Origin: a virus | Taxonomy: Duplodnaviria > Heunggongvirae > Uroviricota > Caudoviricetes | DNA length: 6,346 nucleotides | Reading direction: 5' to 3' (one strand) | IMG/VR virus record: IMGVR_UViG_2597490253_000008 | Shown here: positions 1 to 6,346 of the stretch, piece after piece | Layout of the letters: each line of letters begins with the position of its first letter | Position numbering within the stretch: position 1 is the first letter of the stretch | Position numbers and translations under genes: made by a program | Notes under the pieces: generated by a model | What the model was told of the DNA's origin: nothing | Database searches by the model: none | Seen by the model: only the letters and a program-made list of their open reading frames with translations

Positions 1-383
1 CCCTTTGAGGTGGTTTCCACCAGTGCCTGCACGCCGAAAGTAAAACGCAGACGGTCAATGTTTGCCGACGTGATGGTCCGGGTGATCGGCGTGTCATATT
101 TCACTTCTGTACCGAGCACCGTCTCGGAGCCGGAGGATTCAAATCCCTCCGGCGGAGTCTGCTCCTGCTCACCGGCCCGGAACACCACCGTGACGCCGAA
201 TATATTGGTATTCCCCTCACTGTCCAGCACCGGCGTACTGTTCAGCAGCACGCTTTTTAATCCATCCACCGGACCTTCAACCGGCCCTTCGCTGATGGCG
301 TCTATCACGCTCAGCATCTGGGATGATTTCAGGTTGTCCTTCGCTTCGCGCGGGGTATGCCCCTTACTGCTGCCTTTACCCAT
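1..383 (-). CDS. J: Tail tip fibre / host-specificity protein J, N-terminal 127 codons (runs off the left edge of the window)
   Basis: Reverse complement of 381-383 is ATG. My own translation reads MGKGSSKGHTPREAKDNLKSSQMLSVIDAISEGPVEGPVDGLKSVLLNSTPVLDSEGNTNIFGVTVVFRAGEQEQTPPEGFESSGSETVLGTEVKYDTPITRTITSANIDRLRFTFGVQALVETTSKG with no stop to position 3. This is near-identical to the lambda gpJ N-terminus as I recall it. It is absent from the ORF track because it has no in-window stop. Confidence 0.93.
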   Translation of the reverse strand, partial: MGKGSSKGHTPREAKDNLKSSQMLSVIDAISEGPVEGPVDGLKSVLLNSTPVLDSEGNTNIFGVTVVFRAGEQEQTPPEGFESSGSETVLGTEVKYDTPITRTITSANIDRLRFTFGVQALVETTSK

Positions 384-399
384 TCCTCATGCTCCATAA

Positions 400-425
400 A
401 CGATAAAACCGCCCGGAGGCGGTTT
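400..425 (-). terminator. Intergenic GC-rich hairpin with U-tract between I and J (terminator- or attenuator-like; function unproven)
   Basis: Plus strand 406-413 AAACCGCC, loop 414-417 CGGA, 418-425 GGCGGTTT: a perfect 8-bp stem with a 4-nt loop. On the minus (coding) strand the stem is followed by UUUUAUCGUUUAU, then a GGAG/GAGGA Shine-Dalgarno-like stretch and the J ATG at 383. Confidence 0.3.
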
Positions 426-443
426 CACATAAAACATTTTGCA

Positions 444-1085
444 TCAGCGACCAATCACCACAACCTGACCACCATCCCCTTCGTCTGCCGTGCTGATCTC
501 CTGAGAAACCACGCGTGACCCCACGCGCATTTCACCGTACAGAACCGGCAGAACATTGCCCTGGGCAACCATGTTATCCAGTGAGGAGAAATAGGTGTTC
601 TGTTTGCCGTTATCCGTTGTCTGTGTACGGGGAGTTCTGGCTTTCGGTGCCAGCATCTGCGCCACACCACCAAGCGTCATCGCCGCACCCATTGAAAAGA
701 GAATGTCACTGAAAGCGATACTGATCCCCGGCATCCAGATTGCCGTAGCAATCAACGCCGCACCCAGCACCGCCTGAAACACACCGCCACTTTTTGCTCC
801 CGCAAGACGCGGCACGATGTGGATCACGGCACCATTTGCCAGCGGCTCATTAAGACGGGATGATAATTCGGTTTCTCCTGCATCCCGCCCGGCAATCCGT
901 ACCTGATACCAGCCATCGCTCAGTTTCTGACGAAACGCCGGGAGCTGTGTGGCCAGTGCCCGGATGGCTTCAGCCCCCGTTTTCACACGAAGGTCGATGC
1001 GGCGGCCAAATCGTTGCAAATCCCCGTAAAGGCAGATGCGTGCCATTCCCGGTGACGCCAGAGGGAGTGTGTGCGTCGCTGCCAT
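444..1085 (-). CDS. I: Tail tip assembly protein I, allele A (213 aa, complete)
   Basis: ORF-track protein begins MAATHTLPLASPGMARICLYGDLQRFGRRIDLRVKTGAEAIRALATQLP, matching lambda gpI. ATG at 1083-1085 (rc) with GAGG about 11 nt upstream; TGA stop at 444-446 (rc). The start overlaps the K allele A 3' end by 103 nt in another frame. Confidence 0.93.
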   Translation of the reverse strand: MAATHTLPLASPGMARICLYGDLQRFGRRIDLRVKTGAEAIRALATQLPAFRQKLSDGWYQVRIAGRDAGETELSSRLNEPLANGAVIHIVPRLAGAKSGGVFQAVLGAALIATAIWMPGISIAFSDILFSMGAAMTLGGVAQMLAPKARTPRTQTTDNGKQNTYFSSLDNMVAQGNVLPVLYGEMRVGSRVVSQEISTADEGDGGQVVVIGR

Positions 1086-1618
1086 TTGTCGGTATACCTC
1101 TCTCGTTTACTCAGTTGTTCAGGAATATGGTGCAGCAGCTCACCGTCGCCGCAGTAAATGGCGGCGTGATTCGGCACCGATGAACCAAAACAGCACAGCA
1201 GCACATCGCCCGGCTGCGCCTCTGTCAGTGCGACACGGTAAAAACCAGTAGCCTCCATATTGTCAAGATAGAGATTCTGACCGTGACGCCACCAGTCATC
1301 CCCGCGATGAAAATCCGGCATCTCAATCCCCGCCAGATGGTAAGCATCCCGGAACAGTGTGTAACAGTCTGTCACCCCGTACTCAAAGCGCCGCCCGGTG
1401 AGATGCGGCACACAGCGGAACTTGTGAATCGCCCCCCGGCAGACCAGCCACCACGGCAAATCGCTCTGCACCTGCAGCCGCCGGTCAGCCTCACTCAGCC
1501 AGGGCAGACCACCGGGGTGGCTGTGGACCAGCGCCACAATCTCACCCTGCATCTCTGCCTGCAGCCAGTCCTCCGGAGCCATCCGGAAATACGCCTCCGG
1601 CTCACCGGAGATATTCAC
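884..1618. repeat. Direct repeat copy 1 (K/I region, allele A); partner at 1871-2605, offset 987 bp
   Basis: Aligned by eye: about 93-95% identity with scattered substitutions. The terminal ~98 nt (1521-1618 vs 2508-2605) appear identical and abut the N gap. Left of ~884 similarity falls to ~70% (divergent central part of I). Confidence 0.9.
983..1618 (-). CDS. K: Tail tip assembly protein K, allele A, 5'-truncated by the N gap (about 36 N-terminal codons missing)
   Basis: The ORF-track 983..1645 protein from VNISGEPEAYFRMAPEDW... to ...AAASTFV aligns to residues 37-247 of the complete K copy at 1970..2713. It contains the HSHPGGLPWLSEAD (JAMM) and DCYTL / NHAAIY (NlpC/P60-like) motifs. The leading MPVWCXXXX of the track ORF is an artefact of reading across the gap. 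Confidence 0.85.
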   Translation of the reverse strand: MNISGEPEAYFRMAPEDWLQAEMQGEIVALVHSHPGGLPWLSEADRRLQVQSDLPWWLVCRGAIHKFRCVPHLTGRRFEYGVTDCYTLFRDAYHLAGIEMPDFHRGDDWWRHGQNLYLDNMEATGFYRVALTEAQPGDVLLCCFGSSVPNHAAIYCGDGELLHHIPEQLSKRERYTDKWQRRTHSLWRHREWHASAFTGICNDLAAASTFV

Positions 1619-1628
1619 NNNNNNNNNN
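1619..1628. other. Assembly gap (10 N)
   Basis: Run of 10 n characters. The two sides are not adjacent in gene coordinates: the left side is K codon 37 onward, the right side is I codon 148 going backward. Confidence 0.99.
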
Positions 1629-2072
1629 GAGCACCATACTGGCACCGAGAGAAAACAGGATGCCGGTCATACCACCGGCCCCAATGGCTGCCCCCCATGC
1701 TGCAAGGGTGGCTCCGGCGGTAAAGAATGATCCGGCAATGGCGGCAGCCCCCAGGACAATCTGGAATACGCCACCTGACTTGGCCCCGGCGACTCTGGGA
1801 ACAATATGAATCACAGCGCCATCAGGCAGAGTCTCATGTAACTGCGCCGTTAACCCGGACGTGCTGACGTCCCGCCCGGCAATCCGTACCTGATACCAGC
1901 CGTCGCTCAGTTTCTGACGAAACACCGGGAGCTGTGTGGCCAGTGCGCGGATGGCTTCAGCCCCCGTTTTCACACGAAGGTCGATGCGGCGGCCAAATCG
2001 TTGTAAATCCCCGTAAAGGCAGATGCGCGCCATGCCCGGTGACGCCAGAGGGAGTGTGTGCGTCGCTGCCAT
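1629..2072 (-). CDS. I: Tail tip assembly protein I, allele B (lambda-type), 3'-truncated by the N gap (first 148 codons present)
   Basis: MAATHTLPLASPGMARICLYGDLQRF...RIAGRDVSTSGLTAQLHETLPDGAVIHIVPRVAGAKSGGVFQIVLGAAAIAGSFFTAGATLAAWGAAIGAGGMTGILFSLGASMVL, then the N run. 2072-1629+1 = 444 nt = 148 codons exactly. The XXXXEYLR tail in the track ORF is a gap artefact. Confidence 0.88.
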
Positions 2073-2605
2073 TTGTCGGTATACCTCTCTCGTTTACTCA
2101 GTTGTTCAGGAATATGGTGCAGCAGCTCGCCGTCACCACAGTAAATAGCGGCATGATTCGGCACCGATGAACCAAAGCAGCACAGCAGCACATCGCCCGG
2201 CTGCGCCGCTGACAACGGCACCTGATACAGCCCTGTGGCCTCCAGATTATCAAGATAGAGATTCTGGCCGTTACGCCACCAGTCATCCTCACGATGAAAG
2301 TCCGGCATCTCAATCCCCGCCAGATGGTAAGCGTCCCGGAACAGCGTGTAACAGTCCGTCACCCCGTGCTCAAAGCGCCGCCCGGTGAGATGCGGCACAC
2401 AGCGGAACTTATGAATCGCCCCCCGGCAGACCAGCCACCACGGCAAATCACTCTGCACCTGCAGCCGCCGGTCGGCCTCACTCAGCCAGGGCAGACCACC
2501 GGGATGACTGTGGACCAGCGCCACAATCTCACCCTGCATCTCTGCCTGCAGCCAGTCCTCCGGAGCCATCCGGAAATACGCCTCCGGCTCACCGGAGATA
2601 TTCAC
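1871..2605. repeat. Direct repeat copy 2 (K/I region, allele B); partner at 884-1618
   Basis: Same alignment as copy 1: K stop 983 vs 1970 and I start 1085 vs 2072 are both offset by 987 bp. Confidence 0.9.
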
Positions 2606-2713
2606 GCAGGGAAAATATCTTTCCCCCTCCGGCGCTCTCACCACGAAGCCGCACGACTCCGCTGGCGCACATCGCCGGGCATGCGCCAGAATCGCTGATT
2701 CTGTCTCTGTCAT
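1970..2713 (-). CDS. K: Tail tip assembly protein K, allele B (247-aa long form; JAMM/MPN plus NlpC/P60-like domains)
   Basis: ATG (rc of 2711-2713) lies 5 nt after the L stop (TAA, rc of 2719-2721). The protein MTETESAILAHARRCAPAESCGFVVRAPEGERYFPCVNISGEPEAYFRMAPEDW... carries H68-S-H70-x7-S78-x2-D81 (JAMM signature) and downstream Cys/His motifs. The stop at 1970-1972 overlaps the I start by 103 nt. Confidence 0.9.
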   Translation of the reverse strand: MTETESAILAHARRCAPAESCGFVVRAPEGERYFPCVNISGEPEAYFRMAPEDWLQAEMQGEIVALVHSHPGGLPWLSEADRRLQVQSDLPWWLVCRGAIHKFRCVPHLTGRRFEHGVTDCYTLFRDAYHLAGIEMPDFHREDDWWRNGQNLYLDNLEATGLYQVPLSAAQPGDVLLCCFGSSVPNHAAIYCGDGELLHHIPEQLSKRERYTDKWQRRTHSLWRHRAWRASAFTGIYNDLAAASTFV

Positions 2714-2718
2714 GGGAT

Positions 2719-3417
2719 TTACTGCGAAAGTTTGTTAATGGAAAGGAAGCCGCCAAAGTTGCCGACGTTATTGCGAAACTTACAGCCGCTCAGGCATTTG
2801 CTGCATTTATCCTTCGTGATATCGGAAGTCGGCTGATCATATTCATCCGCGACCGCCGGACCGTGATAACCGCACTCATCACCGCGATAGGTCCAGGTGC
2901 AGGTATTAGCCAGCATGATGCGCCCCGGAAAAACGGCACCATCCGTTTCCGTCGGTGTGGACAGTACAAAGGAGGCACTGACCGCACTCAGTTCGCTGCA
3001 CTGCTCGATGCGCCAGCGGCTGATCACCTCCTGCTCCGGATCGGCGTCGCTGTTTCCGTTGACGAAGTTCACCGCATCCAGAAAACGGGCGTAAACCTTA
3101 CGCCTGACCACCGTTCCGCCGACCAGACTCTGCAGATCTTCCACCATCCCGGTGACCATACCGTACAGGTTAGAAACCGTCAGCGTGGGGCGCGTACTGG
3201 TGCCTTTGCCATTCAGTTCAAAACTACTCCCCTGAATGGGATACGGCTGATACTGTCGCCCCTGCCAGGTGACCGGCTCACCTTTTTCGTTCTGCTCATT
3301 ACAGAAAAAATAACGTTCTCCACCGACCTCTGTCAGATCGATTTCCCAGAGCACCACGCTGGCCGACTGCTCCGCACGGGTGCATTCATTCAATGTTTCC
3401 TGCCGGATATCCTGCAT
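2719..3417 (-). CDS. L: Tail tip protein L (232 aa)
   Basis: MQDIRQETLNECTRAEQSASVVLWEIDLTEVGGERYFFCNEQ... matches lambda gpL. The start ATG (rc 3415-3417) overlaps the M stop TGA (rc 3417-3419) as ATGA. C-terminal cysteine cluster CTWTYRGDEC ... CSKCLSGC. Confidence 0.95.
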   Translation of the reverse strand: MQDIRQETLNECTRAEQSASVVLWEIDLTEVGGERYFFCNEQNEKGEPVTWQGRQYQPYPIQGSSFELNGKGTSTRPTLTVSNLYGMVTGMVEDLQSLVGGTVVRRKVYARFLDAVNFVNGNSDADPEQEVISRWRIEQCSELSAVSASFVLSTPTETDGAVFPGRIMLANTCTWTYRGDECGYHGPAVADEYDQPTSDITKDKCSKCLSGCKFRNNVGNFGGFLSINKLSQ

Positions 3418-3746
3418 CAGTTCACCACCTGTTCAAACTCTGCGCTGAACTCAACACGCAGCATACTGACCCGCGACGACCATTTTGCGCAGGTCACCTT
3501 TATCTGCCTGTAACCATAAGGCGGCGTCCACAGAAAGGCCTTCCAGCCCCCGTGCTCAGCCAGAAACGACTCCAGCGCCGTGGCCTCCTCACGGGAGACA
3601 GACAGCGTCACGCTGTACGTTTTCAGGTCAGCGTTCAGCCCGGCAGGCGCACGCTGGGAATAGCCATCACCAAAGCGCACCTCCCTGACGGAAGGAGCCG
3701 ATGTCACATCCATCCCGGGTTTCACTTTCCAGCGGAAGGTTTTCAT
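3417..3746 (-). CDS. M: Tail tip protein M (109 aa)
   Basis: MKTFRWKVKPGMDVTSAPSVREVRFGDGYSQRAPAGLNADLKTYSVTLSVSREEATALESFLAEHGGWKAFLWTPPYGYRQIKVTCAKWSSRVSMLRVEFSAEFEQVVN matches lambda gpM. The ATG (rc 3744-3746) overlaps the H stop TGA (rc 3743-3745) as ATGA. Confidence 0.95.
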   Translation of the reverse strand: MKTFRWKVKPGMDVTSAPSVREVRFGDGYSQRAPAGLNADLKTYSVTLSVSREEATALESFLAEHGGWKAFLWTPPYGYRQIKVTCAKWSSRVSMLRVEFSAEFEQVVN

Positions 3747-4499
3747 CGTCCACCTCCGGAGAACAGACCACCATCGCGCATCTGTGCCTGGATTTCATCA
3801 CGGGCACCCTTGCGGGCCATGTCATACACCGCCTTCATCATCTGTGGACCTGGCAGACCATTCGTACCGTCGTTCTGAATCACCACGTTGTTGTTCTGCT
3901 CAAACCTGATACCCTCTGAACGCCGCATTTGCGCCGGACTTCCGGTGCCACCGACATAACCGCCGGTGGCATAGCCGCGCATCAGCCGGTAGAGATTTCC
4001 CACGCCAATCCGGCTGGTTGCCTCCTTCGTGAAGACAAATTCACCACGGTGAACAATCCCCGCTGGCTCATATTTGCCGCCGGTTCCCGTAAATCCTCCG
4101 GTTGCAAAATGGAGTTTCGCCGCAGCGGCCTGAATGGCTGTACCGCCTGACGCGGATGCGCCGCCACCAACAGCCCCGCCAATAGCGCTGCCGATACTCC
4201 CGACAATCCCCACCATTGCCTGCTTAAGCAGAATTTCTGTCATCATGGACAGCACGGAACGGGTGAAGCTGCGCCAGTTCTGTTCACTGCCGGTCAGCAT
4301 CGCCGCCATATTCTGCGCAATACCATCAAAGGTCTGCGTGGCAGCACTTTTAACCTGCGACATACTGTCCGTGGCACTCTCTTCCCACTCACTCCAGCCG
4401 GACTTCAGGCCTGCCATCCAGTTCCCGCGAAGCAGGTCTTCAGCCGCCCTGGTCTTTTTCTGCTCTGACATGACGTTATTCAGCGCCAGAGGATTATCG
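3743..4499 (-). CDS. H: Tape measure protein H, allele B, C-terminal about 252 codons (5'-truncated at the N gap)
   Basis: The track ORF 3743..4471 starts at an internal ATG (MSEQKKTRAAEDLLRGNWMAG...LFSGGGR stop). The same frame stays open upstream to the gap, reading ...DNPLALNNV before MSEQKK, so this is an internal part of H and not an independent gene. Gly/Ala-rich hydrophobic segment AMVGIVGSIGSAIGGAVGGGASASGGTAIQAAAA. Confidence 0.9.
3767..4499. repeat. Direct repeat copy 1 (H 3' region, allele B); partner at 4510-5242, offset 743 bp
   Basis: Patchy identity. Near-identical core (about 3961-4390 vs 4704-5133) and a ~95% block at 3767-3837 vs 4510-4580. Divergent patches at about 3838-3960 vs 4581-4703 and near 4440-4499 vs 5183-5242. 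Confidence 0.88.
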
Positions 4500-4509
4500 N
4501 NNNNNNNNN
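4500..4509. other. Assembly gap (10 N)
   Basis: Run of 10 n characters. The right side ends at H codon ...RDGG (7 codons before the H stop); the left side resumes about 245 codons earlier in H (DNPLALNNVMSEQKK). The track ORF 4480..6336 reads across it out of frame (IILWR stop is an artefact). Confidence 0.99.
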
Positions 4510-5242
4510 TCCACCATCACGCATCTGTGTCTGAATTTCATCACGGGCACCCTTGCGGGCCATGTCATACACCGCCTTCAGAGCAGCCGGACCTATCTGC
4601 CCGTTCGTGCCGTCGTTGTTAATCACCACATGGTTATTCTGCTCAAACGTCCCGGACGCCTGCGACCGGCTGTCAGCCAGACTGCCCGGTGTACCGACAT
4701 AACCACCGGTGGCATAGCCGCGCATCAGCCGATAGAGATTCCCCACGCCAATCCGGCTGGTTGCCTCCTTTGTGAAGACAAATTCACCACGGTGAACAAT
4801 CCCCGCTGGCTCATATTTGCCGCCGGTTCCCGTAAATCCTCCGGTTGCAAAATGGAATTTCGCCGCAGCGGCCTGAATGGCTGTACCGCCTGACGCGGAT
4901 GCGCCGCCACCAACAGCCCCGCCAATGGCGCTGCCGATACTCCCGACAATCCCCACCATTGCCTGCTTAAGCAGAATTTCTGTCATCATGGACAGCACGG
5001 AACGGGTGAATCCCCGCCAGTTCTGTTCGCTGCCGGTCAGCATCGCCGCCATATTCTGTGCAATACCGTCAAAGGTCTGCGTGGCCACACTTTTAACCTG
5101 CGAAAAACTGTCCGTCGCACTTTCCGCCCACTCTCCCCAGCCGGACTTCATCCCGGCCATCCAGCTTCCACGAAGCTGCTCCTCCGCAGACCAGGTGTTC
5201 TTCAGTGCCGATGTGGCCTTCGCCAGCGCAGCCGGATTATCA
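4510..5242. repeat. Direct repeat copy 2 (H 3' region, allele A); partner at 3767-4499
   Basis: Same alignment as copy 1. Begins immediately right of the 10-N gap. Confidence 0.88.
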
Positions 5243-6346
5243 CCGTACACCTCACGAAGGCGCTGCTCTTCCGACTCCCGCTGCGCCTGACGGTCGGTGA
5301 GGCCGCGGGCTTTTGCGCTGATTGCCGCCTGCTTCGCGCTTTGCTGCTGTTCAAACCGCGCCGCCTGCTGTGCCAGCTCATTCAGCCGCTTCTGGTGTTC
5401 AATCTTGTCTCCCAGCTCAGCCAGCTGGCGTTTGTACTCCAGCGTCTCTTTCTCATGAGCCAGCAGGGATTTTTCCTGCTCAGATAACTGCCGTTTCGTG
5501 GCGGCCTCTTTCAGGACCACATACTGACTTTCCGCTTCCCATAAATCCCGGCGCTGCTGGCTGATTTTCTCATTCACACCGCTGTGTTTTTCCAGCGTCC
5601 TGAGCTCGGTTTCAAGCGCCAGCAGGGCTGCATGCGCCCGGTCTTCCTGGCGCTCACCGGCAGACACCGTCACACCTGACGGCTTTTTCAGCGTCGATTC
5701 ATAATCCTTTTTTGCCGACGCCATCAGCGTGTNNNNNNNNNNNNNNNNNNNNNNNNCCGCCTGCAGGATTTTTCCGTCTTTCAGGGCCTTATTCAGCTCT
5801 TTCTGACGGGCGGTATATTTATCCAGCGGCGTCTGCAGGCGCTCATACGCCTTCTGCGCCTCTCCGGTATACTTCAGCTGTGACGACTCACGCTCAGCCC
5901 TGTCCCTTGCCGCCAGTTCACCGGCTTTTTCCATATCCGACTGCAGCGTGGCCGCTGCCAGACCCAGACGGGCATTTTCCCGGTCATCCCATGCCCCCTG
6001 AAGGTTCGCACGAAAAGAGGAGGTCTTTCCCCGGCGCTGGCTCCGGCTCTGGTACCACTGCCATTTTTTATCCGCCTCATCAAATGCCTTCTGCGCACTG
6101 GCGAGCATATCCGCTGAGGATTCCGGACGACCGATATCCAGAATGGCATCCCACATCGATTTGAATGCCTTCCCTGTTTTATCCGCCCAGGTCTCCAGTG
6201 TTCCCATGTTTTCTTTCAGGCGACGGGTCTGCTCATCAAAGCCTTTCGTGGCGATATCGTTCGCCGCCTGCAATGCCCCGGCCTCGTCTCCGGAACGCTG
6301 CAGCTGTGCAACATACGCAATCTGCTCTGCCGTCACGTTACGGAAC
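4510..6346 (-). CDS. H: Tape measure protein H, allele A, internal fragment (open at the window edge; ends at the N gap just before the native C-terminus)
   Basis: Continuous minus-strand frame from the window edge (FRNV TAEQIAYVAQLQRSGDEAGALQAAN...) to ...KGARDEIQTQMRDGG at 4510, matching lambda gpH as recalled. Coiled-coil-like, charged and Gln/Ala-rich middle typical of tape measure proteins. The M at 6336 in the track is a GTG inside the gene. Contains the in-frame 24-N gap at 5733-5756. Confidence 0.9.
5733..5756. other. Assembly gap (24 N) inside H allele A, frame preserved
   Basis: 24 n characters. The flanking protein ...KDGKILQA [gap] TLMASAKKDYESTLKK... is collinear with lambda gpH on both sides. 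Confidence 0.99.

Follow-up and report, generated by a model that had tools for sequence, protein, structure and literature searches.

Apparent partial duplication of tail genes in a lambdoid prophage scaffold: very probably a mis-scaffolded join of two prophage alleles

The window analysed here, the whole 6,346-nt stretch of viral DNA, is a short-read scaffold and not contiguous DNA, and its apparent partial duplication of tail genes is very probably the product of mis-scaffolding, which joined alleles of two lambdoid prophages, as judged by comparison of sequences. The scaffold comprises three main pieces, 1–1618, 1629–4499 and 4510–6346 (segments 1, 2 and 3), separated by two runs of ten N's. 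A third run, of 24 N's, was absent from the initial annotation of this DNA. That annotation had favoured mis-scaffolding over a real tandem duplication, a preference supported here by the 1160-nt spacing of the outer segments in closed genomes, the location of segment 2 at a separate locus, the missing junctions and the segment ends at branch points.

Homologues of H, M, L, K, I and J lie in that order on one strand (Table 1), with all Pfam matches above the curated cut-offs. The domains are Tape_meas_lam_C, Phage_min_tail, Phage_tail_L, JAB with NlpC/P60, Lambda_tail_I and GpJ. The RefSeq annotation of the matching loci agrees with this assignment, and the order proposed initially, H(A)–gap–H(B)–M–L–K(B)–I(B)–gap–K(A)–I(A)–J, is borne out by the Pfam matches. 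Gene order and domains are the same as in the lambda tail tip module H-M-L-K-I-J of lambdoid Escherichia coli prophages, and the window is 99–100% identical to prophages of B2 E. coli. The biology is no different from that of lambdoid E. coli tail modules; the scaffold order alone departs from the single-copy module.

Table 1. Tail genes and scaffold components of the window
Feature	Position	Strand	Description
J N-terminus	383..3	-	Pfam
I(A)	1085..447	-	Pfam
K(A)	1618..986	-	211 codons, without the first 36 of 247; Pfam
I(B)	2072..1629	-	148 codons; Pfam
K(B)	2713..1973	-	Pfam
L	3417..2722	-	Pfam
M	3746..3420	-	Pfam
H(B) C-terminus	4498..3746	-	251 codons; Pfam
H(A)	6345..4510	-	Ends 7 codons before the stop (compared with SF-173 H)
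Block common to both prophage paths	1..671	-	J N-terminus (383..3), I-J spacer, about 75 C-terminal codons of I
A arm	672..1618	-	Middle and N-terminus of I(A), K(A) codons 37-247
10-N placeholder	1619..1628		K(A) codon 37 joined to I(B) codon 148
B arm	1629..2605	-	I(B) codons 1-148, K(B) codons 37-247
Core, B allele	2606..3766	-	K codons 1-36, L, M, last 7 H codons
H(B) C-terminal arm	3767..4499	-	About 244 codons, diverged copy of 4510-5242
10-N placeholder	4500..4509		H(B) at about codon 601 joined to H(A) at about codon 850
H(A) tape-measure arm	4510..5732	-	
24-N collinear scaffold gap within H(A)	5733..5756		Stands for 6 nt (TGTAAT) in relatives
H(A), more N-terminal part	5757..6346	-	

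Both pairs of duplicated copies directly flank assembly gaps, the ten-N runs. Positions 883–1618 match 1870–2605 at an offset of 987 (94.3% identity over 737 nt, E = 0), and 4511–5176 match 3768–4433 at an offset of 743 (89.7% over 671 nt, E = 0); per 100-nt block, the identity between copies ranges from 63% to 99%. That both gaps are flanked by diverged direct repeats had been recognised at the outset, as had an identical stretch of about 98 nt at the end of the K/I repeat, which proves to be exactly 98 nt long (1521–1618 = 2508–2605), the last mismatch lying at 1520. The repeats and this identical stretch could not be of chance origin. The further claim that each gap joins non-adjacent positions overlapping in gene content also holds: the flanks of 1619–1628 are not adjacent, their true relation being an overlap of about 987 nt, and those of 4500–4509 likewise overlap by about 743 nt. 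Whereas the copies are 94.3% and 89.7% identical to one another, each has its own prophage match, at a separate locus, of 99.6–100%. Copies derived from one another by tandem duplication would be near-identical or have private changes in common, which is not what was found.

Segments 1 and 3 belong to one prophage in the closed genomes PU-1 and SF-173, where they lie exactly 1160 nt apart, the length of K codons 1–36, L, M and the last seven codons of H. Their identities are 99.6% and 99.7%, respectively, in PU-1 and 99.3% and 99.9–100% in SF-173. Within segment 3, the tape-measure arm is 99.9% identical to SF-173 and UTI89, and the more N-terminal part of H(A) matches SF-173 and five IMG/VR contigs without a difference (100%). 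Segment 2 (2871 nt) has an unbroken 100% match in a prophage at another locus in many B2 strains, with Nissle 1917, ATCC 25922 and IHE3034 among the strains that match; in SF-173 the identity, to a second prophage 184 kb from the first, is 99.93%. Both prophage types are found in SF-173, UTI89, SF-088, GN02100 and OZ547212 at loci at least 145 kb apart, the prophage of segment 2 lying 145–190 kb from that of segments 1 and 3 in strains with both. A comparison of the three segments with a closed genome of the strain had been proposed initially; that with closed relatives places segment 2 at a different prophage from the other two. The suggestion that segments 1 and 3 are the A flanks of one prophage gains support from the 1160-nt spacing in PU-1 and SF-173, but it has to be narrowed for 1–671, which is common to both prophage paths. 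This block is 99.85% identical to the B prophage of SF-173, where window position 1629 is directly next to it, and it is also contiguous with 672–1618 in PU-1 (99.6%).

The A core of the closed relatives, the 1160-nt equivalent of the window core, differs from the latter at 36 of 1161 sites and is identical to it over 3473–3766. No closed genome with all three segments at 99.5% identity or more was found; PU-1 is without the upstream part of H(A), and SF-173 and UTI89 differ in 1–414 and carry a 418-nt insert. Mosaicism is so common among the lambdoid prophages compared that the pairing of flanks in the source can be no more than probable. Taken alone, each segment keeps the order of real sequence present in single copy; the true neighbours of its ends have been found and are different from those in the scaffold.

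Searches with the junctions gave the same picture. The natural junction 671|1629 is present in at least 120 IMG/VR viral contigs and the natural junction 3766|4510 in 15. The scaffold junctions, allowing 0–30 nt between the flanks, had no match in the viral, genome and metagenome contig collections; as a control, the junction pattern does match the literal N's of the window. Look-ups of exact proteins of the window gave just short contigs from other assemblies and, in one case, no record. With N-free junction queries against 5,426 closed genomes, the best 40 records all have the normal spans of 979 and 735–737 nt, where a tandem junction would be expected to span 541 or 600 nt. A genuine tandem duplication would show a sequenced novel junction from the end of one copy to the start of the next, and both junctions here are runs of N's. 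Six NCBI draft contigs stop 6, 8 or 33 nt past window position 1618, contigs with I(A) end at 1102–1231, and in the metagenomic scaffold L154 the sequence restarts at precisely 671 beyond a gap of 100 N's. The same places break independent short-read assemblies.

A ten-N run in L154 replaces 26 nt. Together with the 24 N's that stand for 6 nt in the window, this indicates that the lengths of N runs in such scaffolds are estimates or placeholders. We considered whether the N runs might be length-preserving masks of real sequence and rejected this, since the flanks are non-adjacent and 24 N's stand for 6 nt. The H allele of PU-1 turns divergent (88.8%) just upstream of the 24-N run. A branch point at this run was nevertheless rejected because PU-1 first differs at 5758 and not at 5757, with no more than 14 nt before the gap in common; the run is treated as an ordinary gap replacing 6 nt.

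Of the four internal contig ends, three, all but that at 4499, fall to the base on points where the two versions come together or part. Segment 2 opens with G at 1629 (A at 672), the first base specific to B once the shared ...CACACCACC has ended, and segment 3 with T at 4510 (A at 3767), the first base specific to A past the shared ...GGAGAACAG. Segment 1 ends after exactly 98 shared nucleotides. When the two paths were modelled as k-mers, nodes that begin at 1629, 3767 and 4510 and an A-only node covering precisely 672..1618 were obtained jointly at k = 99 only, a value that depends on the one end at 1618. The A-only node breaks at 1123/1142 with k = 77 and continues into the core with k = 127. 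There is no branch point between the two modelled paths at 4499, the right end of segment 2, near which the A path is identical at 38 of 60 positions. A third allele sharing the last 98 nt before 4499 was sought, and neither that 98-mer nor the last 60-mer occurs in any fetched locus. Two other assemblies start contigs at 4471, 28 nt from 4499, which is suggestive but does not explain this end.

Such a scaffold would be expected from a sample with two lambda-type tail modules, which two prophages of a single B2-type E. coli genome would most simply supply; the modules would be exactly alike in some stretches and different in others. Path A would run from H(A) (6346..4510) through the core to K(A)/I(A) (1618..672) and the shared block (671..1), and path B from H(B) (..4499..3767) through the core (3766..2606) and K(B)/I(B) (2605..1629) to the same shared block (671..1). 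As assembled, the two paths would form a bubble and a fork in the graph, with arms too divergent to merge. Read pairs would set both arms beside the same core, leading a paired-end scaffolder to place the arms in series and to fill the non-positive distances with a minimum buffer of ten N's. K/I and the C-terminus of H would thereby appear, falsely, as partly duplicated. The A core, initially suggested to have collapsed onto the B copy, may have been lost as popped bubbles or may just have been omitted; since it differs at 36 sites in the closed relatives, one would expect an A-core contig of its own, unless this was discarded.

A de Bruijn graph assembler run at k = 99 with Velvet-like output would fit. 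By its manual and code, Velvet leaves out the k−1 prefix of any node that follows a gap and gives gaps shorter than 10 as 10 N's. We found no published source for the minimum of 10 N's in Velvet, the general buffer rule alone being supported (PMC2793427).

The alternative with most biological consequence is a real heteroallelic tandem partial duplication, H'-H-M-L-K-I'-K'-I-J, formed by unequal recombination of co-resident prophages, with the N runs hiding only a few bases at two novel junctions that the assembler failed to close. Were it true, the defective tail module would be a snapshot of recombination between prophages. The segments are indeed collinear and all on one strand, and lambdoid prophages recombine and are highly mosaic. 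Against this, both junctions fall within N runs exactly at A/B branch points and occur in none of the top-matching closed genomes and no contig of the three collections, while normal single-copy modules elsewhere contain every segment unbroken. At both junctions, I, K and H genes would also be cut short by the duplication, and its copies match, at 99.6–100%, separate prophages at least 145 kb apart. We regard it as extremely improbable.

The other two explanations concern the route to the same artefact. Contigs might have been ordered against a reference prophage or genome and joined with N linkers, without de novo scaffolding. The equal ten-N length of both misjoins would suit this, as would segments that follow the reference gene order, overlapping placement being expected of paralogous contigs. 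The third gap, with 24 N's for 6 nt, looks more like a distance estimate than a fixed linker, and the asymmetric ends, the right one keeping 98 shared nucleotides and the left ones falling at the first specific base, fit a single export from a graph better than finished contigs joined together; ordering by reference is accordingly unlikely. There is a somewhat greater chance, short of an even one, that the two paths came from different cells or strains of a mixed sample such as a metagenome and underwent the same scaffolding error. Most records of the exact I(A) protein and of the truncated H(B) protein come from metagenome assemblies, and L154, with its similar N runs, is metagenomic. Single closed B2 genomes nevertheless hold both prophage types, so that one genome is enough, and nothing in the window separates the one-genome from the mixed case.

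With the duplication read as a join of two prophage alleles, the window contains no new biology; the duplication is not a real feature, and its significance is for quality control only. Gene callers taking the scaffold as one locus would report a false duplicated K/I pair and pseudogenes, a false truncated or 'fused' tape-measure gene (the open reading frame 4480..6336 crosses N's) and a false K-I fusion (983..1645). In many other E. coli draft and metagenome assemblies, made independently, contigs break at these very bases over the same graph tangle. Because this breakage recurs, tail-module 'duplications' beside ten-N runs of short-read scaffolds should be masked or split before comparative analysis.

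The proposed misjoin resembles artefacts already described. Pebble (Zerbino et al. 2009, PMC2793427) merges nodes that read pairs mark as neighbours but no path connects, with a buffer of N's as long as the estimated distance, and many of these buffers are very short (PMC2793427). As in this module of Velvet, the window has one estimated gap, 24 N's for 6 nt, and two minimal ones; ten-N placeholders also come from other scaffolders, as L154 illustrates. Kelley & Salzberg 2010 (PMC2864568) described 'duplicated overlapping contigs' as false duplications, in which diverged versions are assembled apart, mate pairs link both to the same neighbours, and the result looks like a recent tandem duplication (PMC2864568). 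The pattern here, with the versions adjacent across a gap, is the same as in that study and in Ko et al. 2022 (PMC9516828). The versions in those two studies are diploid haplotypes, whereas here two prophages, or two strains, would have supplied them as paralogous modules. Unlike in the haplotype case, both copies here truly exist in the sample, though not in tandem.

A set of 5,426 closed E. coli genomes served as the reference for each of the three pieces of the window. Piece 2 (1629–4499) is present, unbroken and at 100% identity, in a prophage (type B) of many phylogroup-B2-type strains, including Nissle 1917, ATCC 25922, ABU 83972, IHE3034, APEC O1 and PA45B. UTI89, NU14 and SF-173 match piece 3 (4510–6346) at 99.9% identity, and PU-1 and ExPEC XM match piece 1 (1–1618) at 99.6%. 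In PU-1 and SF-173, pieces 1 and 3 belong to one prophage (type A) with a spacing of exactly 1160 nt, made up of K codons 1–36, L, M and the last 7 codons of H, and in UTI89-type genomes the whole 6346-nt window corresponds to ~5015 nt of continuous DNA. SF-173 also carries the piece 2 prophage (99.93% identity) 184 kb distant, placing piece 2 in a different prophage from pieces 1 and 3, as the initial annotation had supposed. Both prophage types are found at separate loci in UTI89, SF-088, GN02100 and OZ547212 as well; because they coexist in single closed genomes, the content of the window is explained by two ordinary prophages.

In the type B prophage of SF-173, window 1–671 (99.85% identity) directly adjoins window 1629 onward, and this block is therefore common to both prophage types. 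The assignment of all of 1–1618 to an A allele thus holds for 672–1618 only. Path A would run from H(A) (6346..4510) through the core to 1618..672 and 671..1, and path B from H(B) (..4499..3767) through the core (3766..2606) and 2605..1629 into the same 671..1. The A core of closed relatives differs from the core of the window at 36 of 1161 sites, so that in the source an A core would either have been removed as bubbles or been left on an orphan contig. The alleles of the middle part of I, of K and of the H C-terminus reassort freely, with mosaic boundaries at ~672, ~883 and ~3767 (segments 672–882/1629–1869 and 883–1618/1870–2605). O104:H4 prophages and the IMG/VR record L079 combine the A allele of K (99.7–99.8%) with the B allele of I, and L079 and a further record, L025, have a B-type I junction together with an A-type H junction. 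Given this reassortment, pieces 1 and 3 are likely, but no more than likely, to have been linked in the source. Paths A and B may derive either from a single genome or from two strains in a mixed sample.

All recognisable genes are lambda-type tail genes, and their minus-strand order H-M-L-K-I-J and non-adjacent joins agree in every detail with the initial reading.

Tail genes and N runs of the window
Feature	Coordinates	Strand	Extent	Basis
J	383..3	-	N-terminus only	Pfam
I(A)	1085..447	-		Pfam
K(A)	1618..986	-	211/247 codons, first 36 absent	Pfam
N run	1619-1628		10 N	
I(B)	2072..1629	-	148 codons, gap-cut	Pfam
K(B)	2713..1973	-		Pfam
L	3417..2722	-		Pfam
M	3746..3420	-		Pfam
H(B)	4498..3746	-	C-terminus, 251 codons	Pfam
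N run	4500-4509		10 N	
H(A)	6345..4510	-	ends 7 codons short of stop	Pfam
N run	5733-5756		24 N	

The longest ORF for I encodes 213 aa from ATG at 1085 or 2072 and overlaps the 3' end of K by ~100 nt (986–1085, 1973–2072); the RefSeq start is later, giving 190–191 aa and an overlap of 4–37 nt. A-type prophages of the UTI89/SF-173 kind have an insert of ~418 nt between I and J (7415–7865 in the related locus L002; spacer 414–448 in the window) that codes for the hypothetical protein WP_001332187.1 (112 aa); this insert is absent from the window and from PU-1.

Diverged direct repeats do flank both 10-N runs. The K/I repeat (883–1618 and 1870–2605, offset 987) has 94.3% identity and ends, in line with the ~98 nt first estimated, in a mismatch-free stretch of exactly 98 nt (1521–1618 = 2508–2605). 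The H repeat (4511–5176 and 3768–4433, offset 743) has 89.7% identity, ranging from 63% to 99% by 100-nt block.

Three of the four internal ends of the pieces coincide, to the base, with branch points between the two paths. Since CACACCACC is common to path B, where it is followed by GAGCACC, and to piece 1, where it is followed by AAGCGTC, piece 2 starts at the first differing base. Similarly, GGAGAACAG is shared by path A in SF-173 (then TCCACC) and by piece 2 (then ACCACC), so that piece 3 also starts at the first differing base. The last A-specific base of piece 1 is 1520, and the piece ends 98 nt further on. Of the two-path k-mer models built from the path A and B sequences, that with k = 99 gave a node specific to A whose limits are exactly 672 and 1618, together with nodes whose first bases are 1629, 3767 and 4510, a set that k = 55, 77 and 127 did not produce. 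The shared tail is retained on the right but missing from the left ends, an asymmetry presumably expected of a de Bruijn assembler writing a scaffold in one pass, and 10 N fits what we take to be the minimum gap written by Velvet. Where Pebble finds no path between two neighbours, it links them with a stretch of N as long as the distance it has estimated, many of these stretches being very short (PMC2793427). Piece 2 stops at 4499, where the modelled paths A and B do not branch; a third allele or a gap in coverage could account for this. The independent metagenome contigs L154 and L155 start at 4471, 28 nt from this end, a hint that lambdoid prophages share another branch point within H.

A real tandem duplication of the tail module is not supported. 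Queries spanning the junctions without N returned the normal single-copy spans of 979 nt and 735–737 nt in 40/40 top closed genomes, whereas the span of 541 or 600 nt expected from a tandem junction occurred in none of these 40. Junction flanks with 0–30 nt between them had no match in IMG/VR, 185,579 species-representative genomes or JGI metagenome contigs; the same pattern does match the literal-N junction in the window. The natural junctions, by contrast, are present in at least 120 viral contigs (671/1629) and in 15 (3766/4510). Moreover, each repeat copy is 99.6–100% identical to a different prophage, and neither copy is derived from the other. With pieces 1 and 3 separated from piece 2 by prophage, ends on branch points and tandem junctions unmatched, the proposal of a misjoined scaffold is upheld. 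We conclude that the apparent duplication is an assembly artefact, with no biological novelty.

The 24-N run, in frame within H(A) and not mentioned in the initial reading, is of another kind: SF-173 and five IMG/VR contigs have just 6 nt (TGTAAT) in its place, and it is thus an ordinary collinear gap of over-estimated length. The H allele of PU-1 becomes ~89% divergent just upstream of it.

Breaks at the same places in independent assemblies indicate that the tail module is a recurrent tangle for short-read assemblers. In six NCBI draft E. coli assemblies, ~2-kb contigs with 99.8–100% identity to the SF-173 A prophage end 6, 8 or 33 nt past window 1618; ten contigs that encode a protein identical to I(A) stop at window 1102–1231, five of them at exactly 1141. 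L154, an ENA metagenome scaffold, has a 100-N gap and restarts exactly at window 671, and its own 10-N run stands for 26 nt. The MEGAHIT contig L008 (ENA ERZ27236832 k141_320668) is 100% identical to window 1–1231 and, after a J truncated at 392 aa, carries 120 nt (2016–2135) equal to window 4242–4361 in H(B); this contig, too, is probably a chimera assembled from the module.

The sole value of the feature is as a warning for annotation, since several ORFs of the window are products of the misjoin, which yields truncated K, I and H and false minus-strand ORFs at 983..1645 and 4480..6336. These continue through the 10-N runs, and the latter through the 24-N run too, because the gap lengths happen to preserve frame; a K-I 'fusion' and a chimeric tape-measure protein of 618 aa could then appear among gene predictions. 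GTG at 1618..1616 also provides a false start codon, and the 211-aa K protein that begins there is recorded for seven draft assemblies. The case belongs to the class of false duplications that Kelley and Salzberg call 'duplicated overlapping contigs' (PMC2864568), but whereas the cause in that class is haplotypes, here it is paralogous prophage modules.
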